A model generated the notes under the pieces. That model did not search any database, was not told where the DNA came from, and saw nothing but the letters and a program-made list of their open reading frames with translations. A program made the translations under genes and the position numbers. From the NCBI GenBank assembly GCA_044892525.1, contig CM097885.1:235724001-235788000 (forward strand): DNA of 64,000 bases, written 5' to 3'. Source of the DNA: Schmidtea polychroa. Lineage: Eukaryota. Each line of letters starts with the position of its first letter. Within the stretch, counting starts at the first letter, position 1. This document shows positions 4,150-46,970 of this stretch, one piece after another.

Positions 4150-4157
4150 ACCAGGCG

Positions 4158-6110
4158 GAATCAGAAGCTGCTTTTACTCAAAAAGGCTATCGGAACTGGA
4201 AGCGAGGCTTAGTAAAGCATGAAAAGTCGAAGGCTCATGGAACCGCCATGGCACTCTGGAAAGATTTACAACATCGACAACTAATGGGACAGGAAGTTAG
4301 TACTAAGGTGAATGATGAGCAGTGCGAGAGGAACCGCTACTATGTTCGATCAATGATGGACATAATTTTCTTCCTAACAGCGAATGAATTACCTCTACGA
4401 GGTACTCAAGATTCGGCAGGGCTTCAAAAGTTAGGCAGTGTGCTTGATGATACTTCAGAGCCAACTGAGCCATGTGGTCTATTTGTTAAACTCTTTCAAT
4501 ACACTTTGCAGAAGGATCCCTACTTAGCAAGTGTATATAGTACCATTCCTCAGAATGCCTCTTACACGTCAGCCCAATTTCAAAATGAAATTATTCACCA
4601 CTTGGCTGATCTAGTTAAAGAAAGAATTGTAACAGAACTGGATGACAATTGGTTCACTATTATGTGTGATGGCACAAAGGATGTAAACGGAATTGAAAAT
4701 ATCTCAATTGTTTTACGATTTGTCGATCTCAAGGGAAAAGTTCGTGAACGTTTGTTATGTATTGCAGACACATCTAAGCTGGATGCAGAGAGTTTGACAC
4801 ACTTATTGATCAATCATCTCCAGAAGAACAAGATTCGTCTTGATAGGATATTGGCTCAGTGTTATGACGGAGCCAGTGTCAATTCCGGACACAAAGGTGG
4901 AATCCAATCTCTTCTGCAACAGCGGCTTCAGCGCAGAGTGCCTTATATTCACTGTTTTAACCATCAGCTGCATGTCGTGGTCCAGTATGCTGTTTCCTCA
5001 AACGAAACAGTGGCGCTGTACTTTAGTATCTGTCAACAGCTGTATGTATTCTTCCGTCGTCCCATTATCCAAGCCAAGTATAATGGAGAATCACTAAAAC
5101 GTGTATTGGAACAACGCTGGGAAGGTCATCTTTCAGCTGCTGTCACTGTGGGAAAGTTCCTCCAAGATATTCTCAAAGTTCTCGAAGATTGTGAAAAAGG
5201 TGTTGGAGAGATAGCAGTTATTGCCTCAGGAATCCTCAAAAGATTGGCGGACCCACAATTCCTCCTTCTTTCAAAATGTATGCCAGTGTTATTAAACAAA
5301 TTGAATGTTCCCAACAAACTCCTGCAATCCAAATCAATAACATTTCTAGAAGCTGCTGACTGTGTAAATACAACAAAGGAGATGATTCAAGCAATGAACA
5401 ACGAGGAGACCTTTGAGGTCTATTGGTGCTGTGTAGAGAAGGAGACTGTTGCCTCTGTTGAGTCTGGCCATCCTCGCTCTAAAAGACAGCGCTTGATAAG
5501 CTCTCGATTGATAGACAATGAGTATGATCTTTCTCGACTTTCCACAGATAATTCCATAATGCAGTCTTACCCAAATACGGAACGCACACGAGCATGGCAG
5601 ACATATCAGAATCTTTTAAATGGGTTTTTACATGAACTGAACAATCGTTTTGGGGAGTTGCAATGCGACATTGCAAAATCTGTGGAAGCCACTCACCCTG
5701 CATCAAAAAACTTTCTTGAGAAAGCTGCTCTCCAGCCACTTGCCGACTTGGTAGGTTTGGTTCTTGATGATGTGGAATTACAACTTGCTAAGAAATTCTT
5801 CTCCCAAGAGACTGGCCGAGCAGAAGATCCTCGTTCCATCCAAACTTCACCTGTTTCAGAAGCAATGCCAACCATTCGCCAGATTATTGGATTGGCTCGA
5901 ACAATTGGTGTATCAACTGCTGTTTGTGAGTCTTCTTTTAGCACCCTGAATAGGGTTCTAACACCACAAAGACGCTCTATGCTTCATCAGAGACAATCTG
6001 ATTTGATTCTCATTTCCTACGAGAACGCATTGGCTAGAAGTGTTAAGGAGGATGGTAGTCTGATACGTCGCTTCTGGGAGAGTGGATCAAGAAGACTTCA
6101 ACTGTTTTGA
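4158..6110 (+). CDS. 3' part of outer hAT transposase (catalytic and dimerisation domains)
   Basis: Open from 4158. Motifs IMCDGTKD, QCYDGASVNSG, YIHCFNHQLH, QRW and STAVCESSFSTL give the full DDE triad plus CxxH. Confidence 0.93.
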   Translation, partial: ESEAAFTQKGYRNWKRGLVKHEKSKAHGTAMALWKDLQHRQLMGQEVSTKVNDEQCERNRYYVRSMMDIIFFLTANELPLRGTQDSAGLQKLGSVLDDTSEPTEPCGLFVKLFQYTLQKDPYLASVYSTIPQNASYTSAQFQNEIIHHLADLVKERIVTELDDNWFTIMCDGTKDVNGIENISIVLRFVDLKGKVRERLLCIADTSKLDAESLTHLLINHLQKNKIRLDRILAQCYDGASVNSGHKGGIQSLLQQRLQRRVPYIHCFNHQLHVVVQYAVSSNETVALYFSICQQLYVFFRRPIIQAKYNGESLKRVLEQRWEGHLSAAVTVGKFLQDILKVLEDCEKGVGEIAVIASGILKRLADPQFLLLSKCMPVLLNKLNVPNKLLQSKSITFLEAADCVNTTKEMIQAMNNEETFEVYWCCVEKETVASVESGHPRSKRQRLISSRLIDNEYDLSRLSTDNSIMQSYPNTERTRAWQTYQNLLNGFLHELNNRFGELQCDIAKSVEATHPASKNFLEKAALQPLADLVGLVLDDVELQLAKKFFSQETGRAEDPRSIQTSPVSEAMPTIRQIIGLARTIGVSTAVCESSFSTLNRVLTPQRRSMLHQRQSDLILISYENALARSVKEDGSLIRRFWESGSRRLQLF

Positions 6111-8161
6111 TTTATATTGTATTGTGCCTTTGTTAACTTTTTATTTACTGTAGTGTGCAATCAAGTATTCAACAGTTGCCGAATAAAACTCGTGTTTTAA
6201 TTTCAATTTTTTATGAATCGAAATAAGGGAAAATTTGTTCTAAAACTACAAGATCATATTGCCCCTCCGCAAAATTGGTCTGCCCACCCGCAGACAAATT
6301 CCTAGCTACGCCACTGTGAAGCATGCATTTTTAGGACACAAGAATGTAGTACAGGAGCCACAAGTTGGCTTAAAAAGATAATTCTGTCTATACTACATAA
6401 AATAGGGACAAAGACAAAATGTATTTTCAAAAATATATAATGGCAAGATCAAAGAAGACATTTCAAACACGTCAACAACGACCTGCAATCTGAACCAGAA
6501 GAAAAATGCTTGGAAAATGTTAAAAGTATCATGAAAACTACGGAGCACAAGACTAAATTTGCATATATTACAAGTTTGTTCAAACCAAATAATATGAAAA
6601 GTAACATTTCCTAGAAAATACATCCCGGCATTGTGACAGGCACTACAACAAAATTTCAAAACGCGTTGACAAAAAATAATTAACAACAAAACTCCTTGAA
6701 ACCTGTGTAACTTATGTTACATCTCAAAAATACTGGGTAACTTAATAGATAAAATTGCATTTGTCTCTTTTAATTAAAACTTTTAAAATCGGTCTTATAT
6801 TGTTATTATTTCAAGAACGATTAAATGTCTTTTTCCGGCGTATAAACCCTGAGCCCCTTTTCATAATGTTTAGATCGGCTGATGTTGAACACCGTCATTC
6901 TATAATAGGTTAATGAATTTATACTTGTATTTTTGGACACCTGAATTGGAAAACTTTTATGTACGAATAAGAAATCCCCGCAGATCATTTAATTTCATTA
7001 TTGACGCTAAAAATCCTTTGAAAAAACAAATATTTTTCACTATCTAGTTTTAAAATTTTCTTTTTACAACTCGACATGGACATCAATTTTTGTGAAATTT
7101 TTAGTGAATGAAAATTTATTTTAGAATAATTTATTTTTTGAGATATTTAATTATAAATAATTAAAAATTGAAAAAAAAATCAATTGATTATTTAATGTCA
7201 TTCGATGAAAATAAGAGCACAATCGATAATTACACAAAAGCACAATTGTTCATTTCATTGTTCACATCACTAATTTCACCAGCATTTGGTTTGAAAGGAA
7301 CCTATGGTGACCATATCTTCAAGATTGAAAAGTTCATCTTTGCGAAACGTTTTGTTAAGTGCGTTTCAAACGTTAATTTTTAATTTTAAATAACAATCAT
7401 GATCAATGGTGACTTTTTATATGCATTTGACAACGCGCACAATTATCATTTAATCATTCGAAAATTCAATGCAAATCAGTAATTTGCATTGATAAATATT
7501 ATTTTGCTTGAAAGATTTTCTATAAATCATTGACGTATTCAATACTGCTTAATAAAACGTTTGCATTTGTAATAATTTCAAGAGGAAATAAATTTTTTGA
7601 ATCGTCAAACGCTCCATGAATCACATATGATTTATAACTTTTCTATTTATTAAATTATGATTGTAAGGTGATAAAATAATAATTTATAATAAACCATATA
7701 TATTAATAGGACGCTTTGACCTCAATGTTTGATGACTGATAGAGGAATATTTGTGTGTGCAATGAAGTAAAATAAGCATGCATGATAAATTGTCAGCGTA
7801 GATTCAAATCCATCGTGAATTAGAACTTCGATTTTGTTTTTGAGCGTTTCTGACCTATTTTTAATAATCGATTTCGAATACTTTTTCTGCTTCATTAGCC
7901 GGTGCAGTCATCCATTGATCTGTTTTAATTAATAAATCTTTTTCAGAGACGATTGCTTCATCATTCATCGTAACCATTCCAAAAATAGTAAAGAGAAAAG
8001 GCTTGGAAAAATCTTCATTTTCAAATCCTTTTAAAACAAAATCTATAACTTCCAGAAAATTCTTAAAAAACCAAATCCATTAATTCATCCGAATTTATTC
8101 CAACTGTAAATTACAAGAACATTAATCGAAAATTCCAAAACACTTGCAAAATTAAAAAAAT

Positions 8162-8980
8162 TGTTGGGGTTCAACAAGAGAGGTACAAAAATGAGGTGAA
8201 AAATAAATAAAAACATCAAATTCACAATAATAATCTAAAGTATAAAAATATTAATTAAAAACCATAATAAATTAAAAATGAATATATTCCAGGGGAAACT
8301 GGTATGGGCGGATGCCGAACAAAGAGACGAGTTCAAATATAATAAAATAAAATCAATGGGGGTTCCTAGAAGAAATTAATTACAAAAAACTAAAATTAAT
8401 TAAAAATTAATTAGCTAATAGAAAACCCGAGCTAATGGAGAACTCAAGCTGTGTGAGAGGACCCGAATGGTCAATTAAATTTGCCGACGAATAATTAAAT
8501 TGGGGCAAGCTATTATAAAAAGAAGAAAATTGCCCAAACTAAATAGGTAGATAAGACGAAGCCCGTGGAAATGGATTCAACATAATTTGACAAGTGAAAA
8601 TCAAATTATGAGATGGGTATAAAAGCGACCGGCAAGTAAACAAAATCGCCAATAGGTCGAAGAAACGCAAAGGGATAATCTAGCGAGAGGAAGCACCTGA
8701 TAATTGAACTTAGTGATAACTATATATTTTCGAATCGAGCATACCAGAAAGGGGCATTTCCCGTCGGAAGATTAATCCCTGCGCAAGGTTCAGATTTATA
8801 TTGAAAGGTGCAGAGCAAGAGTTGTTTAAAGTTGTGGTTGTTTCATTAAAGAGTGTAATCGATAAAAGTGTAATTGTATTAGTCTCGAAAAAAGATTATT
8901 GTGTTGGGTTGTCTAACTTAATTTCAAAAAGGACACCAAGAAGTCAGACCGTGACACAAACTTGCAAAAAATACCCAACA
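8162..8980 (+). mobile_element. Solo LTR (gypsy-like)
   Basis: Starts TGTTGGG and ends CCCAACA. 4-bp AAAT on both sides. Internal GGGTATAAAAG. Its 3' end resembles the LTRs at 28604 and 45071. Confidence 0.65.
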
Positions 8981-9859
8981 AAATCAAGAAACATTGTTCA
9001 CGTAAGTGTGCACACACATAGATAAGTACACTTTCAAAACCAACGCGCACACAGACGCGATAATTAACCAATGCATGTGATCTGTAATATTTCTATAACT
9101 AATAATATCACCTTTTCTAGATTATAAAATTGTAAGCACTATAAATAGTATAACAATCTCATGTTCCGATTCGAAATATCTTAAATAAATATTGTATAAC
9201 AATGTCTTCTAACAATGAGATTCCAAGTTTTGCACTGGAGTTTACTTCAAGCCGCATTCTTCCGTCAAAATAATTAAAAGTTAAGCTGCGAACTAAGAAC
9301 GTCCGAATTTTGTGAAAGTCAGCAAGTTAATTTTGTTTTTGTTTATGTTGCTTACTTTATTTTGAAATTTTCGTTGTATAATTATATTTAAAAAAACCGA
9401 TTTTTCAAAAACATTTTTGCATATTATGCGAACAAGGATTATTTTAAAGAGTGTTTTAACTATAAAATTCATAAATGAACAAGCAAATTTTTATTAATTC
9501 AAAATCTTTCTTTGAAATTGTTAATTTGAATTATTACAGGGTTTGCCCGTGGCACCACGATGAATTTTTTATTATGTGATAGAAAAATGTTGAAATATTA
9601 TCTACAACAGATAATTTTCTATGTATAATCACGTTTGAATGAATTTATCTTACGAAGGTGACCGGTGACCCCCGTTTTGCTACAGCGCGATTTCGGGCAA
9701 TTCGCTTTTATTTTGTGGTTGTCAATTACCTCATAATGTTTTTTCATGTTACTGAGTAATTGTTTTACATGCTTATTCTTGCTGAGAGCATCTAACAATC
9801 AGGTAAAATTGTCAATTATACTTTTATAAGCTATAAAAGTTTTTTTTGTTGTTTATTTC

Positions 9860-10140
9860 ATCTTTCTCGCAGAAAAATCTCGCAGAAGTAGTGTCCCAAA
9901 AATGAAATCGTGAAGTTATTGCTCACGGAAATAAAAAAGGTATAACAGTCTTAAATTGGACGGATAAGAGAGATTTATTGATACTTTCAACGAAACATTC
10001 AGCAAAAAAGAATCATCAGTCGATTTATCTGACCAAATAATGGCAATTAATAACCATTGCGTAAAACTTCAAAGTGGTATAGGAAATTAGCAATAGAACT
10101 GTTATTAAATACATATATGGTAAATGCAATGGTATTTGTA
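9860..10140 (+). pseudogene. piggyBac (PGBD4-like) transposase fragment
   Basis: Frameshifted GITVLNWTDKRDLLILSTKH, VDLSDQIMA and KWYRKLAIELLLNTYMVNA. Confidence 0.82.
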
Positions 10141-10789
10141 ATGTACAGTTATTTTTGTTAATATTTTAGTGTTCACAATTAGGAATTGTGAATACTAAAA
10201 TATAAAATGCCACCATCTGGGAAATCCAGATTTTCAAGAAAACTATATAGCGATAATTTGCTATAGTAAATTATCGCTATAGTAAATTGAAAAATTAAAA
10301 AAAAAAGAAATCAATAACCAATTAAAGAGTATAAAGATATCAAAGCTAAATTAGCAGAATAAACAATTTAAGATTATATCAAGGATATATCAGAAAATCA
10401 TTCGTTGGATTCTTATCAAAGAAAGGGGAACAAACAATCTTAACAACTATTATATTGGTATAATATCTGAGAGGTAGGACGATTACGAAACGGAAGAAAA
10501 GAGGTCTGGAGACTGATAGAGATTCACAATAACGAATTTAATTTTTTATCCTAAATACATTCTTGCGCAACACAATCTAAAAAGTAAATTAAAGGAAGTG
10601 AAAGAAAAGAAATTGAGAGACCGGCAGAGATTATTATTAAAGCTACTGACTTTGGTCCAAAAATAAATTACTCAAAAGATTGATTAGAAAAACAACTCGA
10701 AATTACAGCAGAAATATTATAAAAGAAATATTCCATATACCACTTTTCTATTCTGACAGTATTACGGAATTCCCGGTAGCCAAGGTTCT

Positions 10790-18400: not shown

Positions 18401-19130
18401 TCAAATGAGAATTGTTATATACACCCACCTCTTTTTAGACAGTAGATGCGTTCCTAAGAAATCCGTATAAAAAAGTAGAAGGAATAGTTTCCTATAGTAA
18501 AATTGGGGATACCTTCCATGTGATCCGAAAACCATGTAAGATGAAATAAATAAACGTAAGAAATGATGAAAACTGTTTTGATATGTATACGAATTTTTTG
18601 GATATGTATACATTTTTTCCGTTATTCCGTGAATTTGGGTAACGAAGTTTTTCAATTTTTCTCTTGGGGTTATCAACGAATTATATAAAATTTTCCCCGT
18701 ATATGCTATTAGACATATCGACAATGGGATCATCCGGTTTTCTTCACTTACATCATATTCCACGTCCATGAATATGATGTTTCTTCTGATCTTATTTTGT
18801 TGTGCCACACTTCTTTCGTAATTTGCCACGAAGATTTTTCCGGTACAGTTTTGAAATTAGCTCCATCATTCTCCAAGATTTCTATCGTTCCTCTGACTAT
18901 GTGGATTTGCTATTGTTCTTCGTTTTTCCTTACCAATAACTCTGCCAATTTTATGTTTGATTTCCTTTCTAACTCAAAAAGGCATAGCATCATCTCTTCG
19001 TTCCTTATTCTAGCCCAATTCGGTATTTTTAAAATTTTCTTCTGCTACTATGATCTTTTCTGTTCGGCTCCTTCTTTCTCTTTCATAATTTTCATAAAGC
19101 TTCGTGCTTCTCTTAATTTCTTCCATTTGA
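18401..19130 (-). pseudogene. DEDDh 3'-5' exonuclease (REX4/ISG20-like) fragment with a charged N-terminal extension
   Basis: IIFMDVEY...PLSICLIAYTGKILYNSLITPREKLKNFVTQIHGIT matches the ExoI region of this family. Later motifs are lost to frameshifts. Confidence 0.65.
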
Positions 19131-19403
19131 TAATTTGAGTTTTCTTTTGTAATTCTTTAAAAATTTCTTTTTGTCGTCAAAGCATCTGAACAATCGTTAC
19201 TTTTATACCTTAAATATTTTGTCGCGACGGTGTGTGATTATTTACCCAATCAAATTAGATGACCCATAAATCCATTATAAATATTTAAATATTATACAAT
19301 TATTGATTTAAATAAAGTAATGATCACTGAAGGAGTATGAAAGAAATGTTAGGTCAATAGGATGCAATAATAATATCTTACTAAACAAATGTTTCTAACC
19401 ACA

Positions 19404-20520
19404 TCACATCATTGTCTGTGATTTTGAATATCGCGAATGATGAAAATGATTGTTCTTCCCTTTTGTCTTCGACATGATGATGTAGATGAGTAGGATACTG
19501 CTTGGTATTGCCACAATGACACATATGAAGGGTAATTCAACATAATTATTACTAAATGAGCTTTCGTTTTTTGACCATGAGAGTTTTACGGGTAATGTTA
19601 GATTAAAATCATTTGTTAATTCTCCAGAGAGTTGAGTATAAGGAAAATGAATATGTCTATTTTCAATGAATGTGATTTGCCATTGATCCGGATTGGTTTT
19701 CCACTTCCAATATTGCATTTTTATCACGACCTTGTTTGGTTTTGGTTTAGTTTTTGAGTTTGGAGTACTCAACTTTGCTCTTTGTCGGTATTCGTCTAAC
19801 ACCACCTGAATTTTATTATTTACAAAAACATTTACCCTTTGTCTGACACCTAGCTGGCGTGACACAATTATTTCCTTGTTCTCAATTTCTATTTAAACTC
19901 GGTTAGTTTCGTTAGTCAAGTATACTGCTTCGTATTGGCTTTAAACTTCTGCCCATTGATTATTCATATACGTCCCATTATCATGAATGAGTTTCTCGTA
20001 ATAATGTATTGAAAGACCGTAAGTGATATTTACTTGTAAATTTTTATATTTAACAAAAGATTTTCTTTTATTTAACGTTTCAATTATATGGTTTTGGAAA
20101 ACAATTCTGATTTTCTGTGGTTCTTCTGCTTTCCAATACACATGAATTTCATTTATCATCGGTTCAATTTCAACAAAAGTTTTTCACTCTTGTCCAAATG
20201 TTAATTTGTTAAAGGTTATAAATTTTTTGAGTAGCATTTTTTTGATACGTATATTGTTTAATGGTCCAAGAATATTTATAATTTGTTGTCAATTGTCGAG
20301 CTTCATATTCGTTTTGCTCGTAATTCAACGAGACAAATAGATTGCTAACTTCTATTTGTTCTGATATTTCGCGATGATACTTCCACGCAATACTGGTAAA
20401 CGTTGATTATATATATAAATTTTATCCATTAATGGTATTTTTTCGACTGCATATGGTAGCTTCATTGTCATTCCATTCGTATTTGATATGACATTTATTA
20501 AGACTGCCGTTATAAATAAA
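19404..20520 (-). pseudogene. env-like type I membrane glycoprotein ORF downstream of gypsy integrase
   Basis: Broken reading frame with six N-glycosylation sequons (NGS, NAT, NIT, NGT, NLT, NES), a hydrophobic helix LPFICVIVAIPSSILLIYIIM and a basic tail SKTKGK. Confidence 0.55.
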
Positions 20521-20523
20521 ACT

Positions 20524-22267
20524 TTATTCATATATTACACTGGCGTAGGGTTTTTTTTGAAATTTTTGTTGAATGATTGTTTCATCATTAAATTTCTTTT
20601 GTTTTGATGGTAATTGATATTCCATTTCCGAAACTCTTTTACATCGATTGTCATGAACTATAATTGTTTCTGCTCTTTTGTTATTTATTGGACGTAACTT
20701 TAAATTAGTTGCTGTTGCATCACACACGGTGTATGTACCTTTGAATGGTTTTTGCAATTTTGTTGATAGGCCTTTTACTGGCTCCGGTTTATTCAAATCT
20801 ACTAAATCTCCGATTTTTATTCCATGATCATGCGCCTTTTTATCATAGCTTTCTTTGTATTGTTCTTGACGATACTTTATTTTTAGCCCCGTTCGGCCCC
20901 ATGCAGATTGTAATCGTTCTTTTATTGTTACTTTATAATCCGCAACGTCCAAGTATTGAGAAGTTGGGGGTTGAAACTCCAAATCAATTGGCATGTTGTT
21001 TCGTCTCAAATACATTAGATAAAAGGGTGTTTCGCCAGCACTCTCGTTAACTGCATTTCGATAAGCAAACAGACATGGTTTGATAAATAAGTCCCAATCC
21101 TTTTGTTTCCGATTCACATATGATGAGATCATATTGATTAAAGTACCATTAAATCTTTCTACTAACCCACCTGTCTGATGACGTATTCAGTGATTTATTC
21201 AGTTTATAAATACCAAATAATTCTGTGATAGATTTAAATAAATCACTTTGAAAATTTGTTCCTTAATCTGTTAACAATTTCTTTGGAGCTCCATATCTAA
21301 ATATAATCTTTTCGACAAATATTTGAGCAACTGTTTCTGCTTTCTAATTTGGCATTGCGTACGCCTCTGGCCATTTGTTAAATAATCACAAAATACAACA
21401 ATATATTTATTTCCATTTATTGTCTCGGATAAAGGTCTGATAATATCCATTGCTTAAAATCCAATTGGCGCTGCTGGGATTGGCATTGGTTTTAGTGGAA
21501 CTTTTATTTTCTTTCCCGTATTTTTTCGAGTTAGACAAATTTTGCACGTATTGCACCAATGCTTTACATCTTGGTATATTGTATTCCAAAAATACTTTAA
21601 TTTTAATCGTGACATTGTTCTTCTTGCCGATAAATGTCCACCCAATGCTCCATCATGATATTGTAGCAATAACGTATTTCGTTGTTTAGTTGGAACCACT
21701 ATTAATAATTCATCACCTTTAATATACTTTAATATGCCTTTGTGAATTACATATTTATGCTTTTACTCAATTAATTGTTTTAATTCATTGTCCTTTTTCA
21801 TTATTACGGTATGTTTGATTATTTGTTTTAGCTCATTATCCATTTCCTGATCTTGTTGTAGCTCTGGCATATTGTTTGCTGCTTTAATTAATGCAAATAT
21901 TGTATCTCTCAAATTTATTTCTTCTTGGCCAATATTAATATGATTTTCCTGTTCAATATTTGATTTCAAAATCATATTCTCGTAAGGCAACCTTAAGGTC
22001 ACCTTATCAATTTGCTTGTTGCATCTCGATGTTTCATCAACCATTGTAACGGATTATGATCTGTATAGAGTCTATACTATAGACAATAAACTTCCGACCT
22101 ACTAAATATTGTCGAAATGTTGTTATTCCATATACCAAAGCTAAAGTTCCAACATGTTTATGTAAAACTCTACTCACTATTTTAATTATTTCCAATTGTT
22201 TTTTGATATCTGAGAAGTCATATGTTCCGATCTCTAACAAAATATAACTCATAATTGTCAGCACCAT
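20524..22267 (-). mobile_element. Degenerate Ty3/gypsy pol (RNase H end, integrase)
   Basis: LALVYGITTFRQYLVGRKF (RNase H). HDGALGGH...CNTC (HHCC). YGAPKKLLTD and VERFNGTL (core). DWDLFIKPCLFAYR, ETPFYL and KPFKGTY (C-terminus). Confidence 0.9.
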
Positions 22268-22902
22268 ATCTCAACCCATTTCTCTTGTCATCATCTCAGC
22301 TATCACACTATCATCTCAAAACTCCATACTTTCTTTTACTTGTCCAAATACTACACAAGATCTCTTTTTAATTTTCTTTGCAATTTTCTTCACATATTTC
22401 TCAATTTGTAATTTCTTTGTTGATCTTTGTTAATTCATTTGCTAGAGCACGTACAGCTTTCTCAGTTTCCTCTGAGTCCTTCTGATCTCTCTCTTCTTGA
22501 AATCCCTGTATTATTTTACATCTCATTTTATACAAATTTCTGCATTGTTTTCCTTTAATATCATTATCAATCGTCATCTCTGTCATATATGCCTCATTTT
22601 TGACTTTAGTCTTTATCTCATTTTCAACAATAATCTCTTCTGTTTCGTTTCGTATTTCATCTTTTCAGTTTTCATCTCCTCTTTAATAATCTCTTCAGTC
22701 TCATTTTCAATTTCGTCTTTTCTCATTTCTCGTTCATCATACCTCTCATCATCTTTATTCATTATCTCATTTCCCAGTTTGGTAACTCAATTTAAAAACT
22801 TTCTTCTACTTCCTTTAATTTCAATTGTTTCACTGCAACTATTTCATTAACAAACATTTGCGACGTTTACTAATTCGTTAAAGATCCATTTACATCGAAT
22901 TT

Positions 22903-23680
22903 TCATGGTACACAGTCACAATCAAATAAATACTCATCATCATCATCTAACTTAAGACCTTTATACTTTAATACAATTATTCCATCATTGCTCATAATTT
23001 CTGCTGCTCTCCGTCGTATTTTACTCACTTTCGTACACCAATGCTCGTTTGTACATTCTACTCCTTGATCATTTATTTTTAACATTACTATGAATGGCTC
23101 AATATAAACTCCTTCTTCTCTAAATTCTTGTCCAAATTTTCGAATAAGCGCTTTTATCATTTCACTATATTCATTGTTATAAGTCTGACACAAACTAAAA
23201 TTTTTAATTTATCTTCCAATTCAAGTTCTAAATTTATAATATTAATTAATTTATCAGTAATAACATCTGTATATCCCTTGATCAATACTTCATTTAATTC
23301 AAATTTAATTTTATCGACATTATATTTGACTGGTTTCTCATTGGCAATCATGCTCACTATTTGTATCTCATTTTCAACACAATCTACTAAAATTTCGTCG
23401 TCTTCCAACACTCGGCCCATAAATCTAAGTTCTACTACCCAAACTTCACACTTGTGCATTATTTCTCTTTTTAGCTCATGCACTTTCTCGTATGTTTCAA
23501 TTTGATAATCGGATTTGGTGCTATCTAATGCATTTGGTTTGATGAATATTGGATCTAACCTTTTAATTTTCCGTAGAGATTGGCCAAATTCTTTCATAAA
23601 ATTTTCGAATACCTTTCACTTTTCCACACTTGCTGCATAACACTCTGCACAAAGTTTAATAACGGTTTTAAGTTTCAATA
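22903..23680 (-). pseudogene. Unknown ORF fragments 3' of the BEL pol end
   Basis: Overlapping ORFs 23157..23597 and 22903..23193 look like one frameshifted protein (LCAECY...; FDCDC). No family recognised. Confidence 0.3.
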
Positions 23681-23682
23681 TC

Positions 23683-26600
23683 TCAATATCTCAATATCTC
23701 CTTTTCTTTACATCTAGTTATCATCACACATAGTTTTTTTTCTTCTCCAGGAATCGCTTCAATTACCCTCCCCATTGGCCACTGCAACTGCCCATTATGC
23801 CGCATTTTCAGGAATTTATTGATTCGCTCTATTTCCCGTGTCAGTTTATCCATTTCCCCCTTCATTTCCTGCATTTCCTTCGCCATCCTATCACTGTCAG
23901 CCTTCACCTGGTGAATGATGTGCACATTTCCATTCAATTCTTGACATTTTCTGTCGACAATTTTCATTTGCTGTTCTAATTCCAACTGATTGATAGATTC
24001 AATTTGCTCATTTATCGATTTGACCGTATAATTTCTGCACCTGAAATTTATCTCGATATCCATCTGATCCAATTTGATCCACAAATTATTATTGCTATTT
24101 CTCATCATGATTTTCAGCTCTTGATTTTCTGGCTTTATCGCACTGATTTCATTTCTTAATGATTCAATTGATTCATCTTTTTTCATATCATTTATCTTTA
24201 GCTCATTCATTTCCTTTCTCAATTCTTCGATCATTTCAATTAATATTTTATTGTGGTTGTCAATATTAGAGATGGAATGCTCATTCAATTTATCCTGATA
24301 CTTAGTTCGTAAATCTTTCTTTTCAAGCCTTTTAGCTAAACTTCGCAGCCGACTTTCTGCCATTTTATCACTATTGGGCAAGATGTTGGTGACTCTTTCC
24401 ATGGAACTTTTACCTCGAAATTTCCGTCTATTTTTATCATCTCAGATTTTGTTTTCTCATAAATCAACTGGTCTTTTGCTACAAATATATTTTCCTTTAA
24501 GCCACTTTCGTCAATATCCCAAAATCGTTCCATTTGTCTTTCCAAATCATCGCAATTACCAAAGAACTTTTTTATAAAATTGCTTTGATGATTCCAAGTT
24601 CTTCCCACTGAGGTTCTTCTAACACATGTCCAGCCAAGTGGAGTTAAACGGGCAATCGGTTCATCCAACTTACCACTGATTTCTTTGAGTGGTCGTTGAA
24701 GCGTTAAATAATCAGCCCCAATTAAAACTTCAACTGCCTGTCTTTCGTCTAGCATCGGAAAATGGATGCCCTTAAGGTGAGTCCACTTATGTTTTTCTCT
24801 CGCCCAAATTTTACCCTCATTTCTCCCGTGATATTTTCTACGGCCAGTGCATTGAAGTTCTTAGTTAATCGGTCGTCGTTACTAATTAACTTCATGGTCA
24901 CTGGAGTAGCCATCATTTGTTGTACATTACCGCCGATAACCCCTATCGGTGTCCTCTTTTCAACCCCTTTTAAACCAAGCTCCTTTAAAATTTTTAGATT
25001 GATGTAGCTTACTGAGCTTGCATCATCTAACAGTGCATTGACTTTTATTTTCTTGTTCCCATTTTCCAGGTAGATTGGAATTGTTCTTAAACTAAGGTAA
25101 GGTCTTAGGTTTTTCTCGTTCATTCCTTTCTAGGTCAACATCGTGTTGTTACCTTTTTCACTCCCATCACTGAGCTGTCTTTCATGTAATAATTCGTTGT
25201 GTCTTTGCTTACATTCGGTAACCTTGCAGAAAGATTCTTTACGACATTCCTTGACCATGTGATTTCTTTTGAAGCAATTCCTAAACAGTTTCTTTTCTTT
25301 GATGACTTTCTTCCTTTTTGAAATTGTGAGTTGCTTGAACTTGTCACATTGGTCCAGGTAATGTTGACCACCACATTGTACACACTCTAATCTATAAAGG
25401 TTAGAGTTATTCGACTGTATGACCGTTCCACTTTTAACTATGCCATCTGGTAGCCTTGTAAAATGCGTCCAGCCTCCTGGATAGAAGCTTTCTCTTCCTC
25501 TAGACACACCTTCTACTCTTGGCCCATCATAAGTCCTGGTGTTTGGTTGAAACCCATATACGACCTCGTCAGTAGATCTTAGGATCTCCGCTTTTTGTTG
25601 TATCCATCTTCTCAAATCCTCTATCGTCTCTCGCAATTCCTTTTCTATTTTGTCTTTCTTCTATTTATAAACAAGATTTGTGGTTAACATGCCCAAATAC
25701 TTTTGAAAAAGACATCCAGTCTTTAACTCGGATTCTTTCCCAGTGAATTTAAATCGAACGGTGATTGTTTCTAATAATCCAACAAATAAGTCTAAATCCT
25801 TCAAATCTCTTTCTCGAATTGGCCTGAACTTGTCCATCTCATCTAACAATGATAAATATTTCTTTCATCCCCACCATATCGCCTATCCAACTTCTCTTTT
25901 GCCATTTGATAGGCCTCTGCGAAATATCCTACATTTTCAATTAATTTTAAAGGCTCTCCGTGAAGGTACTTATGCAGGTAAAACATCTTTTCAATCTCAT
26001 CACCTTCCGCTTCGTCAACACACGCAATAAAAGCTGCTGTCCATGGTTTGTACTCTTTCATCTTGCCTTTAAAGACAGGTATTGTAATTTTTTGTAGACT
26101 TTCTAGTTTTCTTTTACGCACTGAATTATTTTTCTTGATTGTATCATCATTCTCATTTTCCTTCGCTTTCCTTTTCTTTCCATCAGTGCCCAATCATTTG
26201 ATGTTTTTCCTCGATCTCTTGCAGGCGATGTCCAATCTTTGCAATTTTTTACTAATCCCCTGATTCTTCATCTAGACTCTCCTTTTGATCTTCATATTCA
26301 TCCAACCATTCACTGACTTCCTTCCCATTTATATTATTGAGAATCTTGTTTCTCACTCTCGTTAATTTTCCTTTTTTCATTCTGTTTTTTCACAGTCCTT
26401 CTTCTAAAATCTCTTCGTCATTGCCACCACACAGCCTGAGTGACAAATGAAGTGTCGAACCTACTTGTATGCTATAGTCGTTCAATATTCTTTTATTTTC
26501 TAATTGCATTCCGGCGTAGACTAACGTTTGATAATTTTCCGGAATTCCTTCTTTGTTTTGAATTTTTTCTTTTACATTTTCAATCGTGTCATTCAATTCA

Positions 26601-26752
26601 ACGTCAAGAGTAATTGTCTTACTACTAGTAAGAGTTTTGATAAATATTTGCTTCCTACTTCTCAATCGAAACTCTTCTTCTTCCTCTATTCGATAACTAC
26701 AAGCCTCAAAACCCATTACTCCGCTCACCCTCAACCTTGACTTAGCTCGCAA
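23683..26752 (-). mobile_element. Internally deleted BEL/Pao LTR retrotransposon
   Basis: DUF1759-like gag (IPVFKG...YLHKYLHGEP...KLDRRYG). BEL Zn knuckles (CVQCGGQHYLDQC...NCFKRNHMVKEC...CKQRHNELLH). Protease ALLDDAS, VLIGAD, LTPLGW and FWDID. LPNSDKMAESRL. DUF5641-like WPMGRVIEAIPG. Confidence 0.92.
26423..26653 (-). pseudogene. Ubiquitin domain in frame with BEL gag N-terminus
   Basis: [16 protein letters not shown]...[12 protein letters not shown], 52/76 identical to canonical ubiquitin by manual count. Confidence 0.92.
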
Positions 26753-26781
26753 AAACGCTGAGCTTTTTATTTTATTTTTAT

Positions 26782-27459
26782 TTAAACAGTTCCCGCTTTA
26801 GAAGAGTGCTGGGGCCCATAGCAGCACTTTTTCACACTCGATAAAGAAGAGAGGATGGTTAATTTTACATATATAACTTCAAAATAAAATGAAAATAAAT
26901 GAAAATAGTTTAAAGAAAACCATAATTCACCATTGATTAGCCAGGGCTGTCTCCACTGCTCCATTGGTGCGTAGCCCCCTGAAGGAAACCACGCTCTGCT
27001 ACCATGTTTAAATGTCGAACGGAACATGTTGGCTCTGATAAACTCGCTCTTGTATTGAGCATCATCTTCTTTCGAAGCATCAGCTAAAAGCCTTTGACTT
27101 GATTCCTCAAATAGTAATAACTCATGTTCGGGGATAACGGCAAGCATAATGACCAATTTATAGAGATTCGTGTCCAAATTTCCATGTGTCTGTTCCAGTT
27201 TTATTGTTCGAATATATAGAAATTCATATTTGGATAATGGATCAACTATCCGCTTAAAGTCAATCATTTCTGAACCTTCAACTGATTTGAATTTATTCAA
27301 CTTTATTTGATCAAGATTTAATTTCCATACGATTACATAATCACATAAATCCACACTTCCAAGGAATGAGTTAGTTTAGTTGATTAATTTCGTTATTGAT
27401 TCTGAATGTCCATATAATATATCACTCTGCTTGCCATCTTCTAAACTCCATACAAACAT
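26782..27459 (-). pseudogene. WD40-like repeat fragment fused to an unknown ~190-aa ORF
   Basis: In-frame extension above ORF 26782..27354 reads MFVWSLEDGKQSDILYGHSESITKLIN*TNSFLGSVDLCDYVIVWKL, a GH...W pattern. Confidence 0.45.
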
Positions 27460-27719
27460 AATATAATTTTCCATTTTGAAATTAATAAACGAATTTTTAA
27501 AAACTTTGTATTTTCAAAAACAATCACAAAACTTACCAAATTTAAAGAACTGATATAAATCCAAAAAAATAAAACTTGACATAAATCCTAAAATTGAAAA
27601 AACTGAAATCCAAAACTGTGATAACAACTCGACAATTGTCCGCGTCTGTGTGCGCACACAAATAAATCCAATGTCAAAGTAAAAAACGCACACAGACGCG
27701 AGACATAAACTGATAATTC

Positions 27720-28427
27720 AAAACTATTTCCTGATTCCCAATTGTCTTGGGTTGGGGTTATTGATCTCTCTCTTTGTACTGGAATTATCGCAAATACCTC
27801 AGATTTATTTTTAGAGCTCTTTAGATTCAATTCAATTTTCATAGCCTTTTTTACTAGTTCATCAAAATTGTCATAGTCTACAATTGCCGCCTTTATTTCT
27901 TTATTTACTCCTGACAAAAATTGGTCTTGAATCAGCTCCTGCATCTGTTTGGCTAATCCTGGTTGTCTTGAATCTTCTTCATAGGATTTGCTAGCAAGGG
28001 TTGATAAGTGATACGCAAATTCGCTCACTGTTTCATTTGGATTTTGGACTCTATTATAAAATTTTTGATGCATTAATCTCTTAATATCTCCTTCAATAAG
28101 TTTAACAACCAGTGCATCTTTAAACTTGGCCCAATCATTGGCGATTGTTTTCCTGTCAATTTGTTGCCAAACCTCTCTAGCTGCCCCTTTAAGATATAAG
28201 GGTAATCTTTGAATCATGATTGCTTGAGACCATCCATAAGCCGTTGCATACATATAGTAATCGCTCATAAAATCAACAAAAATAACTGGATCTCCTCCAT
28301 ATTGCTCTACTGCCAATCTTTGACAACTGGCAAAATCATTATTTTCTTTAACAACTGAAACTGGCAAATCTTCACTGCTCATTATCGCTTCCTTTTTATT
28401 CTTACTACGAAAATAATATCGATTCAC
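27720..28427 (-). pseudogene. Ty3/gypsy gag (capsid domain), 3'-truncated
   Basis: YGGDP, YGWSQ, LPLYLKGAAREVW, RVQNPNETVSEFAYHL and DQFLSGV. Lies downstream of the LTR and PBS. Confidence 0.85.
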
Positions 28428-28580
28428 TTTAATAAATTATTTTCTCAAATTGCACAAAATCTAAATCTCAAATTATTATTACAATAAACAATTTACCTTT
28501 CCAAAATCTCTTTTATAATTTCAATTCACCACACTTCATTTTCACAATGTTCCTTTCAACAATCTTTTCACCAACTTTCG

Positions 28581-28598
28581 ATCACGTCGGGCTCACCA
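28581..28598 (-). promoter_or_regulatory. Primer-binding site complementary to the tRNA-Trp 3' end
   Basis: Minus strand TGGTGAGCCCGACGTGAT, 5 nt after the LTR end ...CCCAACA. Confidence 0.85.
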
Positions 28599-28603
28599 AA
28601 ATA

Positions 28604-29260
28604 TGTTGGGTTATTAGGTTGGTGAAAATGTTTGTAAATTCAAACTTTTACTCTGACTCCAAAGCGTGTTTATTAATTTACAATTCAACACTCTCGAACA
28701 CGATAAGCTTTATTAATATTCGCACTGGATTGTACAAATTTCAATTACAATCAATTAACTATAAACCAATTTATTACACAGAGCTTATTTCGACACTACG
28801 TGAAGAATAGCCCTTTCTGTAACCACAACAATAATCACTAGCCGTCAACTACTCAATTACAGGGTACGTTGAATGATTGTTCTATTTGCTTTGACCACCA
28901 AATTTATTTACTCCACTTCCACTTTATATTCAATTTTACAAAAGTTTCTCGTCACTTCTCGTTTCAATCTGTTCTGACTCTGTTTGATTCTCCCTTTAAA
29001 TGTTCTTTTAAATTCTCCCTTTGATTCTCATTTTAACTCTCGTTTTCTTCTCTCATTGACTCCTTTTTTCTCTAATTTTGTTCTACTTTTGTTTCTACTT
29101 TTTTCTACTTTTTGTTCTGATTTCTCGGTCAACTGTTCTGCTTTATATAGTCTGTTTCATTTGTGGCACTGGTGACAGGTTCTGTTTTCCATTTTCTGTT
29201 TTCCATTTTCTGTTTTCCACCGCTTGGGCCAACGATTTGGTATACCGCATATTTTCTTAA
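28604..29260 (-). mobile_element. 5' LTR of the gypsy gag element (start not resolved)
   Basis: Ends GGAGTCAG...AATAACCCAACA. Shares blocks with 44149-45071. Confidence 0.75.
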
Positions 29261-30721: not shown

Positions 30722-32665
30722 CTTTAAGGTATGTTGATTGATTTTCTAAAGTTTTCAGTTCAGCTCTATTTAATAGTGCTACTTTCATTTTCACGGGTTC
30801 ATCCATGGTGGGTCATAAATTTTGTTTTCTCTCAAAAATGATTTAAAAGATAGACGCCATCATAGAAAACACCATTGGATAGAGCGCACAAAATTATAGA
30901 CACACCAAGATGTAACCATAAATGTTTAAGAACTTTTATATTAGAAGAAATTGTAAGAGTTCTTTGTTAAATGGTGCTAGCCGAATTTTTGAGAAGTCGT
31001 TGTCTCAAAATACTAAGGGTAACAGAAAAAATATTTTGAAAAAAAATATTATGTAAAAAAATAATTAGAAAATCTTTCAATTAAAGTTTGACTTATTTAT
31101 AATGACTCCATGACTTTGATAAATGACATAGTTGAATTTTTGCAAAAAAAATTTCTAGGGTAAAGGTCTTTGTTATAACATAACCGAATTAAAAAAGATC
31201 ATACTTTTCACATGATACCAACTTCAAAAACGTGTCTGAAAACATGAGTCATAACAAAGAGCATGACACATTAAAATTATTGCTGACTTATTCCGCGTCT
31301 AATGAATTATTACTCCGATGAATCATATTTTCGAAAGCCAATCAGAACGCTATGTGCTGGATAACTCACATCTATCTACTGGTTTATATTTTTCACTGAT
31401 ATTTTCATTTCTGTAATGCTTAAAAAAGTCTTTTAATTAATGATCAGTTCAACTTTTGTTTCATTTTAATTAAATATTTTTGTCAGAATAAATATATTTT
31501 TTTTGGTTTTACTGATAGCTAATTTTGAGAAGCCAATTTCATATAAGTATGGTTAACAAAAGGTTGAATTAATATTATAGTTTATTGAAGTTTTATTATA
31601 AAAATTAAACATGAAACACAAATCAGAACATTTAATTTATTTAAAAGTTTTTCAATCCCATTATTATAATTATATTTATTATAACTTCCCGAAAAAATTA
31701 CCTATTGGGATCGTAACATATATATATCTGCACAGGGAATGTATTATCTAAAATTAAAATAAAACCAATTAATATATAATTAACGAAACAAAACAACTAT
31801 ATTATTAATTCAAAAAACAATAAGATTATTCATTAATAATAAAAAAAACTGTATACATTAATTCAACTGCATATAATAATAGAAAAACTAGGAACATAGT
31901 CCGATACAAATTTATTAATTATTTTGTAAAGTGTTATTTATTACTCACCTGAATCAATTTTAATAACTCCACTGTATCACCTTCACTGGAAGTCTCGCTG
32001 ACATATTCATCATCATCATCAGAGAAAGAACTCAGACTATCAGTTACATATATATCAACAGTTTCTAGATCAGTTTCATTAGCTTCATTAAAATAAAATG
32101 TTAAATAAAAAAAGGAAATTTCAAAACACTAATGACACCTACCTATACTATGATATGCAAAAAATGTTATTCTAATATATTTTTAAACTTTTTCGATTTT
32201 TTTTAATTGAGATCAGATTTTAGATTTTTTTTGATTAGTTGTCAAATGAGAATTTTTTTATAATATTTGTTTATAATATTCAAAAATCGTTTATATTTTC
32301 GACCTCCTTGTCTATATTTACACTTGTCAAAATGATGTTAAACAAATATTTTTATTAATAGATAAAGTTTCACACCATTTTCATAATGGTTTTAGTAGTA
32401 GATAGAATAAAACTAGCATGAAACATAAATCCAATATGAAGTTCGAAATTAATTTCCAAAAAAAATCCAATTACTGTACCCGGGGTACTGTATTTGGACG
32501 AATGTTGCTATTAGTGTATCCGGGGTACTCTATTGGGGGATGTACTATATTCAGAACCTTACGGTATGTAGAATTATTTTTTGTGGAATTCCGCATTTAT
32601 TTACAATTGCGTCATCAAATGTATATTTATACAAAATACAAATAAGAATTTCAGTGAACCTACAA

Positions 32666-33385
32666 ATGAATTTTCCGTACAAAAGATTATCTGAAGAATA
32701 TTTCGAAGACCCCATTATGACTTGTGCAATTTGTCAAAAGAATATTAATCCCAATAATAGGTTACGACTTCCCAACTGCAATCATGAGTATCATTTTAAT
32801 TGTCTTTTCATTCATAATTTTGATAAACAATCTGTGTGTCCCATTTGTCATGAACCGTATAATAAAACGGAATTTATTGGAAATGAAAATATACATTCAA
32901 GAGTTGTAGTGAAAAATTACATTTATGACTATCGAATTGGTCTCAGCCATTATGTCAATGACGAACAAAAAGGATATTCTTATATGATCGGCCTGTACCG
33001 ACCAGTGTATCCATTTGTTTTTACAATCACCGTCAACAGTACCAAGCATAATTGGAATTTATATTGTAAAAGTAAATACAAAACTTTTGTCATCAGTCAG
33101 GAGAATGAAAAGATATTAAACTCATTGCAGAGCGATTCAAGAAATACATTATATGAATACAATTTGAAGCCTGTTGTAAAAGAAAAACAAATCAAAGAAA
33201 TCAATGCTCGTGTTCTCATGTCAGGAGCATTTGTTATATTGGGAGAAATTTTGTTAAATGACGGATTGAACGAAGCCGATATTCCCGGAATGTCAGAGAT
33301 GGAATCAGTGGGAAAGCATATTTCGTATCCTAAATTGGGTATTCTTCCACAAACAAGTTTATCAAAAATGAGACTGTTGAAATAA
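32666..33385 (+). CDS. RING-H2 finger protein plus unknown C-terminal domain, copy 1 (239 aa)
   Basis: CAIC...CNHEYHFNC...CPIC (C3H2C3) in an intact ORF. Confidence 0.85.
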   Translation: MNFPYKRLSEEYFEDPIMTCAICQKNINPNNRLRLPNCNHEYHFNCLFIHNFDKQSVCPICHEPYNKTEFIGNENIHSRVVVKNYIYDYRIGLSHYVNDEQKGYSYMIGLYRPVYPFVFTITVNSTKHNWNLYCKSKYKTFVISQENEKILNSLQSDSRNTLYEYNLKPVVKEKQIKEINARVLMSGAFVILGEILLNDGLNEADIPGMSEMESVGKHISYPKLGILPQTSLSKMRLLK

Positions 33386-37741: not shown

Positions 37742-38033
37742 TGTAAGGAGTTAGTAAACCTCTATATAAAATTATTATGGTTAAATGTAGAAGTGAGATC
37801 AGTTAGTAGAAATAATTATTTCTGTTAAATTTGTATATTTAAATTCTATATTAAATTATATCATATTATATTAAATTATATTAAATTAAATCAATTAAAT
37901 GTATGACCAGTAATTACATTAATATTAATAATTATCACGCCTCGGTGTTTAAATATTCTAGTAAACGGCTCAGTTTTGAAGTTGTTATAAAAATAAATGC
38001 TTGAAGAAGACTTGAATTTAATTGCGTCTAACA
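37742..38033 (+). repeat. 5' LTR
   Basis: TGTAAGG...CTAACA. One mismatch to the 3' copy over the shared ~284 bp. Confidence 0.95.
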
Positions 38034-39073
38034 TGGCGACCACGACCACGGATTTATTGATAAGCAGACTATTACCTGAGAAATTTCACAAAGGCGATGA
38101 TTTAGAAAATTTTATCAAGGATTGTCAAAGGTTTTTTGGCGCGACAAAAACAACAATTAGGATGCAAGTAATATTAACTACAACATTACTTGACAGATCG
38201 CTAATGGAAGATTATGAAGCAGCCGAAGGAAAAACTATGGAAGAGAAACTTCGATATGCATTTTCAAAACCGACATCATTAATGGATGATCTAAAAGAAG
38301 CTTTGAGTTATGAACAAGGATCAGATTCAGCCGAAACTTTTATAGAGAAAATTAAAAAGATGACAAAGAAATTAATAGCGCACAAATGGGATGAAGAAGA
38401 AATAGAAAAATGCCTGCTTACAAACTGTGTAAGAGATCGAGAAGTTAAAAAAGAGATCGAGATGAAAGATTTGAAAACATCAGAAGAAATAAAAGCGACA
38501 ATAAAGAAATTAGAAAAGGTAAACAAAATTATGGGCCATGTTAATGTTGTGAAGACTTCACCGGTTGTTCAAAACTACAGAAGCTACAGAGATGTTGCTC
38601 AAAGAGGAATGGTAAACGGAAATAATAATTTCAAGCAGCGAAACGTCAGTAACCGACAATTGGAATGCTGGACATGCAAGAAAATTGGTCATGTGAGTCG
38701 AGAATGCCAAATGAAAAAGAAAATTACGTGTTTTGCATGCGCAGTTGAAGGCCACGTACGGCGAGAATGTTCAACGATTCAATGCCAGAGATGTCACTTA
38801 CGTGGACATAAGGAGATTGACTGCTATACAAATTTGGAAAGAAGGAAGTTTCGAACTAATTCAAACATGAGAAACAATAATTATTATGCCCATCGAACCA
38901 CAAGCTATCAACAAAAGATCAACAATCCAAGAAGAACAATTGCAGCCATTGAACCTAATGATGAGACGATGCCATTGGAGTATTCAGACGATGCAGAAGA
39001 CAAATATGAGGAGATTCAGCACCCAAAAGTACATGCTTCGACACGGGAGGCAATGATCGGAGCAATATACTAG
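38033..39073 (+). CDS. gag: Gag with three CCHC zinc knuckles
   Basis: CWTCKKIGHVSREC, CFACAVEGHVRREC and CQRCHLRGHKEIDC. The ATG overlaps the LTR/PBS junction. Confidence 0.92.
   Translation: MATTTTDLLISRLLPEKFHKGDDLENFIKDCQRFFGATKTTIRMQVILTTTLLDRSLMEDYEAAEGKTMEEKLRYAFSKPTSLMDDLKEALSYEQGSDSAETFIEKIKKMTKKLIAHKWDEEEIEKCLLTNCVRDREVKKEIEMKDLKTSEEIKATIKKLEKVNKIMGHVNVVKTSPVVQNYRSYRDVAQRGMVNGNNNFKQRNVSNRQLECWTCKKIGHVSRECQMKKKITCFACAVEGHVRRECSTIQCQRCHLRGHKEIDCYTNLERRKFRTNSNMRNNNYYAHRTTSYQQKINNPRRTIAAIEPNDETMPLEYSDDAEDKYEEIQHPKVHASTREAMIGAIY
38034..38044 (+). promoter_or_regulatory. Primer-binding site, tRNA-Arg-like
   Basis: TGGCGACCACG directly after the LTR. Confidence 0.75.
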
Positions 39074-42514: not shown

Positions 42515-42741
42515 TAGAAATAATTATTTCTGTTAAATTTGTATATTTAAATTCTATATTAAATTATATCATATTATATTAAATTATATTAAATTAAATC
42601 AATTAAATGTATGACCAGTAATTACATTAATATTAATAATTATCACGCCTCGGTGTTTAAATATTCTAGTAAACGGCTCAGTTTTGAAGTTGTTATAAAA
42701 ATAAATGCTTGAAGAAGACTTGAATTTAATTGCGTCTAACA
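42457..42741 (+). repeat. 3' LTR missing its first ~7 nt and the polypurine tract
   Basis: Integrase KLKHFKE runs directly into AGTTAGTAAACC. Confidence 0.92.
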
Positions 42742-44132: not shown

Positions 44133-44148
44133 TAGAAATACATATTTG

Positions 44149-46751: not shown

Positions 46752-46970
46752 CTGGTATAGCTAAGTTGGAAACAAACATTCTGAAAACAATTGTTATTAT
46801 TAATTATGGTAGTAAATCACGTGAATTTTAACAAGCAAAATCTAGTAAACATAACAATTTCCTGATAAATTAAAGTAGAATAATATTCCGGAATTCCGCA
46901 TTTATTTCCAATTGCGTCATCAAATGTATATTTATACAAAACGCAAATAAGAATTTCAGTGAACCTACAA

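Follow-up and report, generated by a model that had tools for sequence, protein, structure and literature searches.

A Burro-like gypsy retroelement of Schmidtea polychroa with an envelope, a DEDDh exonuclease gene inside its long terminal repeats and a predicted FN3 membrane module

Can a single retroelement carry both an envelope and an RNase? The question is raised by positions 18401..22267 of the window, the 64,000-nucleotide stretch of Schmidtea polychroa DNA that we analysed (GenBank assembly GCA_044892525.1, contig CM097885.1, forward-strand positions 235,724,001 to 235,788,000). A first-pass annotation had read this stretch as a gypsy integrase, an env-like glycoprotein gene and a captured DEDDh exonuclease belonging to one retrovirus-like lineage. 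Our analysis identifies it as the degraded 3ʹ portion of a Burro-like gypsy element that lies on the minus strand and is truncated at its 3ʹ end. On that strand the order is the end of RNase H, the integrase, a region with a signal peptide and membrane anchor, the TATA-like box GGTATAAAAG, and the exonuclease open reading frame (ORF), each of the coding parts being interrupted by stops and frameshifts. This agrees with the order first reported, all on one strand, except that bases 18610-18401 (the last 210 of the interval, including the tail of a 151-amino-acid (aa) frame noted earlier) are foreign to the element; about 18553-18418 matches an unrelated dispersed repeat. The arrangement exceeds chance. 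It is colinear with a full-length copy, G, at 85–93% identity, and a DNA search with positions 18560-20560 as the query gave at least 67 matches in the same genome, 40 of 194 candidates being scored.

Does the exonuclease belong to the element? No 3ʹ long terminal repeat (LTR) was found in the window, as the first-pass annotation had stated, nor in the two neighbouring 10-kb stretches. In 11 other copies, LTR pairs that are 99.5–99.9% identical bracket the exonuclease ORF, with integrase, membrane module and exonuclease recurring between them. Four of the 19 regions of the window's own family (F, G, J and K) have LTR pairs 99.8–99.9% identical around the exonuclease, and R has a partial pair. 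In a second family, U, LTRs bound the exonuclease in four of five copies (U, V, X and Z), and likewise in e, h and i. Full copies have the features of Ty3/gypsy elements: LTRs with TG...CA ends, a primer-binding site, a polypurine tract, and the order protease, reverse transcriptase, RNase H, integrase (PR-RT-RH-IN). Most are flanked by 4-base target duplications. The exonuclease-bearing elements are 14.7–17.2 kb long, with LTRs of ~0.9–1.0 kb. The element has been copied recently, and the proposal that a retrovirus-like lineage holds an envelope as well as a DEDDh exonuclease between its LTRs is upheld. We are close to certain of the overall anatomy as described here.

The association extends beyond the LTR-paired copies. 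Among 1,147 candidates from a protein search, at least 150 were scored as matches, mostly in sister families at about 50% identity. Family U elements are 17.2 kb long with an ORF1 of 3,437 aa, and 12 of 102 scored matches fall in an open frame of that length; family k has an ORF1 of 3,419 aa and a 486-aa exonuclease frame. The membrane module lies within ~1.5 kb upstream at 46 of 54 distinct exonuclease loci, and the remaining eight are rearranged element fragments with element DNA around the domain. These 54 loci were counted after merging 12 of 66 locus records with identical flanks, some of which are perhaps true duplications.

The exonuclease is optional, because three sister families with the same polyprotein have none: families a/f, b and c/d/g are represented by six LTR-bounded copies of 14.4–17.1 kb. 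The first-pass annotation had made the linkage depend on whether other copies carry the exonuclease. In the window's family all 19 regions do, although these were chosen with a query spanning the exonuclease; in the three sister families it is absent. Other features of these families were also seen. In four of the six exonuclease-less copies (families a, b and c), a conserved, probably coiled-coil ORF of ~80 aa lies just after the ORF1 stop, at the exonuclease's place. One family b copy has 100% identical LTRs of 1,171 bases and lies within a 369-base tandem satellite. Several copies are interleaved with ORFs that by eye are Polinton-like (family B polymerase, ATPase), and the 3ʹ untranslated part of family U contains antisense pieces that by eye resemble exons of a host Kelch/BTB gene, intron included.

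What kind of enzyme is encoded? The exonuclease is a separate ORF of ~480 aa, comprising an N-terminal domain (~170 aa) of unknown fold, the DEDDh domain, and a variable, basic C-terminal part. In full copies it matches PF00929 (E 7e-6), and its best solved relatives are ISG20L2 (E 3.5e-7), ISG20 (E 8e-7) and SDN1 (E 0.009). Of 34 unbroken domains, 25 retain all the DEDDh motifs (I, D-x-E; II, acidic; III, H-x4-D), the acidic residue of motif II being Glu. The N-terminal domain has no usable match in the Atlas and only a weak Pfam match to DUF7881_N (E 0.1); a structure prediction for the ORF reached a pLDDT of 32. The exonuclease is under purifying selection: the ratio of nonsynonymous to synonymous substitution rates (dN/dS) in the catalytic domain is 0.08–0.21 where the synonymous rate (dS) is measurable.

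The host REX4 is a separate, intron-containing gene, and the element exonuclease is intronless and about 27% identical to it. A phylogeny including host REX4, as the first-pass annotation had suggested, places the element-type enzymes on a branch of their own (support 85/90; 84% of bootstrap trees). That tree has long branches and few cellular rows, and was built without rotifer sequences; rows P0007-P0009, L197 and L198 were labelled element-borne by similarity, the context being known for L195 alone. Since the element-type enzymes form their own group, separate from host REX4, the capture appears to be old, and the word "captured" holds only in this ancient sense. L195 is a metagenome contig (3-11517) whose RT-IN core is 56% identical to that of family U. 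It encodes, in order, PR-RT-RH-IN, a second protease-like domain, ankyrin repeats, a signal peptide, an ectodomain, a membrane helix, and two exonuclease ORFs in tandem, the first catalytically dead and the second intact (PF00929 E 1.5e-11). This contig also has a ubiquitin-like ORF. A search of viral contigs found no relative.

If the element has an envelope, where is it? In unbroken ORFs, Pfam finds zf-CCHC, ubiquitin, Bcl-2 (weak), Monjiviricetes_fusion, PR, RT, RH and IN in one frame. A class III (gB/chuvirus-type) envelope thus follows gag and precedes the protease in the same frame (copies E and G: PF24664, E 5e-89). It is preceded by a ubiquitin-like domain (PF00240, E 7e-4) and a Bcl-2-like domain (PF00452, E 0.004–0.01), both under the curated cut-off; a BH2-like W..NGGW motif occurs in sequences of six families. 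Between PR and RT is a spacer without a Pfam match, at the place of the dUTPase-like region of Burro-type elements. The identification of the ORF after the integrase as the envelope is thus not supported. Its signal peptide and membrane anchor are real, but in unbroken copies it is the in-frame end of the polyprotein rather than a separate gene.

The post-integrase module is in frame with pol, with no intervening stop, in copies G, J, K, U, k, a, b and c. It comprises an internal signal peptide, a stretch of beta structure (about 270 residues), a stalk rich in Ser and Thr, a single membrane helix and a short tail, and is predicted from modelling to be a tandem FN3 membrane protein. An AlphaFold model from 8 sequences has a mean pLDDT of 61, with values mostly of 70–88 in the second and third domains. 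The top Foldseek match is fibronectin (E 5e-9). VIA gives Z 8.1–9.2 for the module, with Z 8.1–8.7 and an rmsd of 1.9–2.7 over 74–79 residues for the middle domain; matches in the viral library are also FN3-type beta-sandwich proteins. In the Atlas it lies near FNDC4/5/9 and cytokine receptors, at a recognition score under the threshold of that tool. No Pfam family matches the module significantly, the family U sequence having only a weak match to Glycophorin_A (E 0.08). For the module, dN/dS is 0.26–0.45. The tails read ETFV, ETWV, ETTV or ETRL, with STLV, VTQV and GTVV in other homologues, and 43 of 44 ORF1 ends, matched by set end patterns, finish in T-x-V/L or a shortened form. We take these tails to be class I PDZ-binding motifs. 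The homologue P0006 starts with an integrase-tail-like sequence, which suggests the same integrase-module fusion elsewhere. Homology of the L195 ectodomain to the FN3 module is not established, because a profile comparison of the two was not significant (probability 0.2).

How might a separate ORF behind the polyprotein be expressed? The spacer between module and exonuclease contains a candidate internal promoter, at 19200..19252 (minus strand) in the window: an inverted CCAAT-box-like TGATTGG at 19252-19246 and the TATA-like box GGTATAAAAG at 19209-19200. Of 16 exonuclease-bearing spacers scanned, 15 contain the inverted CCAAT-like ATTGG, among them those of families with otherwise different spacers, and the TATA-like box is at the same place, ~43 bases past ATTGG, in the window and in copies A, B, D and H. 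These signals suggest that the exonuclease has its own promoter. Four runs of contigs were compared with family U; poly(A)-like loose ends in one of them lie near genomic A-tracts, and the RNA label was a guess, so these ends carry no weight here.

Between sister copies, the exonuclease has diverged much more than the backbone. Copies G and J are 96–100% identical across 10 kb of gag-pol and 70–79% identical across the exonuclease cassette, and dS between them is 0.11 in the integrase and 2 or saturated in the exonuclease. Likewise, dS between U and X is 0.013 in the FN3 module and 0.9–1.3 in the exonuclease. Old versions of the exonuclease are thus found on near-identical backbones, and recombination at the end of ORF1 is therefore needed. 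In a pol tree, exonuclease-less families nest among the bearers (91/91); an earlier pol tree, from which two rows lacking a motif had been dropped, was unresolved. The tree makes one gain and one loss of the exonuclease likely. Loss is not proved, because the alternative, monophyly of the four exonuclease-bearing rows, is not rejected (approximately unbiased test, p 0.127).

What is the functional significance of this combination? The best explanation, and one that we consider probable, is that an FN3-tailed gag-env-pol polyprotein is accompanied by an LTR-enclosed DEDDh ORF whose product acts as an unpackaged, accessory 3ʹ-5ʹ RNase against host RNA defences. Cleavage of the polyprotein would involve its own protease and, at two internal signal peptides, signal peptidase. 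The envelope would mediate cell entry, and the Bcl-2-like domain may favour cell survival. The FN3 protein would sit at the surface of the cell or particle, where its PDZ-type tail could tether it to junction scaffolds; on the structural model, we see an even chance that this tethered protein is an adhesion or receptor mimic. The exonuclease, made from the internal CCAAT/TATA promoter, could trim RNAs that would otherwise trigger PIWI-interacting RNA (piRNA) silencing or double-stranded RNA (dsRNA) sensing. We propose this counter-defence role only tentatively. It is favoured because the exonuclease lies outside the packaged polyprotein, is dispensable, is conserved, and is exchanged as deeply diverged versions. 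Exonucleases of arenaviruses and coronaviruses counter host RNA defence. Both relevant defences have been described in planarians: they respond to dsRNA in a RIG-I-like manner (PMC8797187), and PIWI silences their Burro elements (PMC8532177). The exonuclease divergence of G and J and of U and X on near-identical backbones suggests an arms race. It is doubtful, though conceivable, that the whole set forms an accessory kit comparable to those of complex viruses, in which a Bcl-2 mimic, a class III envelope, a PDZ-tailed FN3 protein and a DEDDh RNase that degrades piRNA or dsRNA ligands act together, with old RNase versions swapped in an arms race with stem-cell RNA defence.

Several observations weigh against this explanation or parts of it. 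No region has dN/dS above 1, and cassette exchange can be neutral template switching. Families a, b and c have equally young LTRs and no exonuclease, so the exonuclease is dispensable, and the giant Burro copy that we examined has none either. Motif II is Glu in place of Asp in this genome's families, and exonuclease activity could be reduced or lost as a consequence. The TATA-like box is altered in copies E, F and G and in J-type copies. For the membrane module, only one of five models reached the mean pLDDT of 61 obtained from its 8 sequences, Z values near 8 can reflect a common beta-sandwich, Pfam fn3 gives no match, and family b ends without a PDZ-like motif.

The strongest alternative, though we consider it unlikely, is that the exonuclease serves the element's own cycle by processing the 3ʹ terminus of the element RNA, the tRNA primer or the ends of the cDNA, with no role against defences. 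REX4-type enzymes trim structured RNAs, and the nearest solved relatives of the element enzyme (ISG20L2, ISG20 and SDN1) fit such a task, as does purifying selection. However, a core replication step predicts neither the replication of sister families that lack the enzyme nor the presence of very different exonucleases on near-identical backbones.

Could the post-integrase module be a second envelope or a fusion helper? It is located where env canonically lies and has a signal peptide, 4–12 N-glycosylation sequons and a membrane anchor, and a receptor-binding partner for the class III fusogen is conceivable. Nonetheless, Pfam detects no sequence homology to a fusion glycoprotein family, and the top structural matches in the PDB and viral libraries are FN3 proteins, although a fusogen fold missing from those libraries is conceivable. 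A furin-type R-x-K/R-R site after the integrase core is found in one of eight sequences scanned and is not conserved, and a full class III envelope is already present upstream. We regard this alternative as improbable, and prefer a predicted FN3 surface protein.

A further alternative, which we rate as rather poor, is that the exonuclease is cargo that benefits the host, as a restriction factor of ISG20 type that acts on other viruses or on transposons. The likeness to ISG20 and the at least 150 scored matches in the genome agree with it. So do two precedents, as given in the available parts of their sources: a Burro1 apoptosis inhibitor protects stem cells (reported second-hand in PMC13465017), and PML-like DEDDh enzymes restrict LINE-1 (PMC10123124). 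However, the exonuclease stays in mobile copies, there is no stand-alone domesticated copy among the 54 loci, and a benefit to the element would account just as well for selection between families. Proofreading of reverse transcription, which would permit a long genome, has an analogy in nidovirus ExoN and fits the 14.7–17.2 kb elements whose 10-kb single frame is often intact. It is very improbable, given that the exonuclease is outside the packaged polyprotein, that exonuclease-less sisters are equally long, and that the giant Burro copy reaches 30 kb without one. Lastly, an independent insertion, or a recent passenger from host REX4, would fit the window copy without a 3ʹ LTR and the three families without the gene, but is refuted by the 11 LTR-bounded copies and opposed by an intronless exonuclease, diverged from host REX4 and under purifying selection, in three families and a distant metagenome element; we give it almost no credence.

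To our knowledge, suppressors of PIWI or dsRNA defences have been found in few animal retroelements; the proposed accessory RNase would be a nuclease suppressor encoded by a retroelement. The lineage is young, multi-copy and enveloped, and its three families with and three without the exonuclease form a natural comparison in an animal with whole-body RNA interference (RNAi). Because such families exist in an RNAi-tractable animal, the role of retroelement exonucleases, left open for rotifers in the available text of PMC5408684, is directly testable. The module with an FN3 fold and PDZ-type tail is a warning that a membrane protein after the integrase need not be an envelope, and it may point to spread by cell contact.

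The remainder of the window copy (all features on the minus strand) follows the same plan. It retains only part of the 5ʹ LTR (its 3ʹ part, 28604..28980, 87–89% identical to the LTRs of copy G) and a primer-binding site at 28581..28598, a motif that comes after the LTR both in this copy and in the full copies inspected from each family, and that is presumably tRNA-Trp-like. No tRNA gene was found in the window. Part of the gag capsid region (27711..28436; PF03732 E 3e-8; 89% aa identity to copy G) is cut off downstream. The ubiquitin-like domain, an acidic linker and the start of the Bcl-2-like domain are decayed at 22149..23675 (85% nucleotide identity to copy G; PF00240 E 0.0015). They end at a deletion junction (22148..22149), at which the alignment to copy G skips from 6517 to 10754. 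The 4,236 bases deleted here encode the true envelope, protease, reverse transcriptase and most of RNase H in copy G. The RNase H end and integrase follow, with stops and frameshifts, at 20532..22148 (PF17917 E 0.0015; PF17921 E 4e-20 at 21454-21762; tblastn to copy G), and then the post-integrase module at 19381..20531, taken for env in the first-pass annotation, with its signal peptide, predicted FN3 domains, membrane anchor and tail ETFV, broken in this copy. The 5ʹ half of the exonuclease ORF occupies 18611..19126 (86–93% nucleotide identity to copy G), starting at 19126. It includes the N-terminal domain, a ~170-base deletion at 18790, and motif I at 18766-18758; motifs II and III are missing because the element stops at 18611.

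Other elements surround this copy. Between gag and the ubiquitin-like and Bcl-2-like region, at about 23700..26900 (minus strand), is a nested, unrelated BEL/Pao-type insertion that is not part of the gypsy element. It has 39 other long matches at 86–89%, and a ubiquitin domain precedes its gag (PF00240 E 3e-22, DUF1759 E 3e-7, weak DUF5641). Positions 26782-27710 (minus), between gag and this insertion, match neither and contain a 197-aa frame without a Pfam match. Lone LTRs of related families lie at 44149-45071 (plus; 73% to J) and 8162-8981 (71% to U). The former adjoins two 15-base tandem arrays that face each other as inverted arms (43494-44140). At 37745-42741 (plus) is another gypsy element, shorter than this one, with a pol frame of 974 aa and repeats of 289 bases that are 99% alike. 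An intronless RING-finger ORF (zf-RING_11 E 5e-8) occurs three times, once inverted, at 94–96% likeness (32453-33385, 46884-47687 and 49466-50170). At 2280-6107 (plus), two long ORFs of 525 and 670 aa are hAT-type transposase-like by eye.

How do these elements compare with known systems? The GAG-ENV-POL backbone is known, having been published for Burro and for Smed errantiviruses. According to the available text on Burro/GYPSM1 (Arkhipova and Yushenova 2019, PMC6431247), env lies in frame between BCL2 and protease. The same source describes the single polyprotein seen here: gag with three CCHC knuckles, ubiquitin/SUMO-like, BCL2-like, env and PR-RT-RH-IN; its section 7 mentions neither an exonuclease nor a fibronectin module. 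Giant Burro differs in being longer than 30 kb with multi-kb LTRs, compared with 14.7–17.2 kb and ~1-kb LTRs here; the present elements fall outside giant-Burro1 as defined, and have no BIR, MATH or ankyrin match in Pfam. The pol of the giant Burro copy that we examined is 50% identical to that of family U, and its polyprotein ends like the present module, with a signal peptide, a short ectodomain, a membrane helix and a PDZ-motif-like SSRI. The accessory ORFs of that copy (G000:C1:260793-290807) include a TRAF/MATH-like protein.

Flatworm GAG-ENV-POL errantiviruses with gB-type envelopes have been reported, with six listed for Schmidtea in the supplements (PMC13524379, from its available parts). 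By eye, the env of Smed_errantivirus_2 is nearly identical to that of the exonuclease-less family c, and families U and k have a close sister in Smed_errantivirus_1; from the same parts, the window's family exactly matches neither. The words "exonuclease", "DEDD" and "fibronectin" have no occurrence in the main text of that source, to the extent available; its supplements were not searched for them.

The closest precedent for the exonuclease is in rotifers, where, in the available text of PMC5408684, Juno and Vesta LTR elements carry a DEDDy exonuclease ORF3 after pol and inside the LTRs. These enzymes show the same DEDD-to-DEED change and, as here, are more similar to one another than to cellular enzymes. 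They are, however, RNase D-like DEDDy enzymes, whereas the present ones are ISG20/REX4-like DEDDh enzymes, with His in motif III rather than the Tyr type. Furthermore, that text places canonical env (TelKA) and DEDDy (Juno, Vesta) in different lineages; here, a single element combines envelope and exonuclease. Motifs I, II and III of ISG20, ISG20L2, REX4 and SDN1 align with the element exonuclease over ~160 residues, but the element enzyme has Glu in motif II, an additional N-terminal domain of ~170 aa, and a separate branch in the tree.

Single-pass FN3 surface proteins (fibronectin repeats, CD45, cytokine receptors, FNDC4/5) resemble the module in its predicted tandem beta-sandwich, signal peptide, one helix and short tail. 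In contrast to them, the module forms the end of a Pol polyprotein, shares 5–14% identity with its structural matches, lacks a Pfam fn3 match and has no host parent gene identified. In the literature searched, neither a DEDDh ORF nor an FN3 membrane module is described for these elements; Grohme et al. 2018 with its supplement, the Burro1 function paper and Repbase lay outside that search and may annotate them. The GAG-ENV-POL backbone and the post-pol exonuclease ORFs of rotifers are thus known, and what appears to be new is the cargo, namely the DEDDh ORF and the putative FN3 membrane module.

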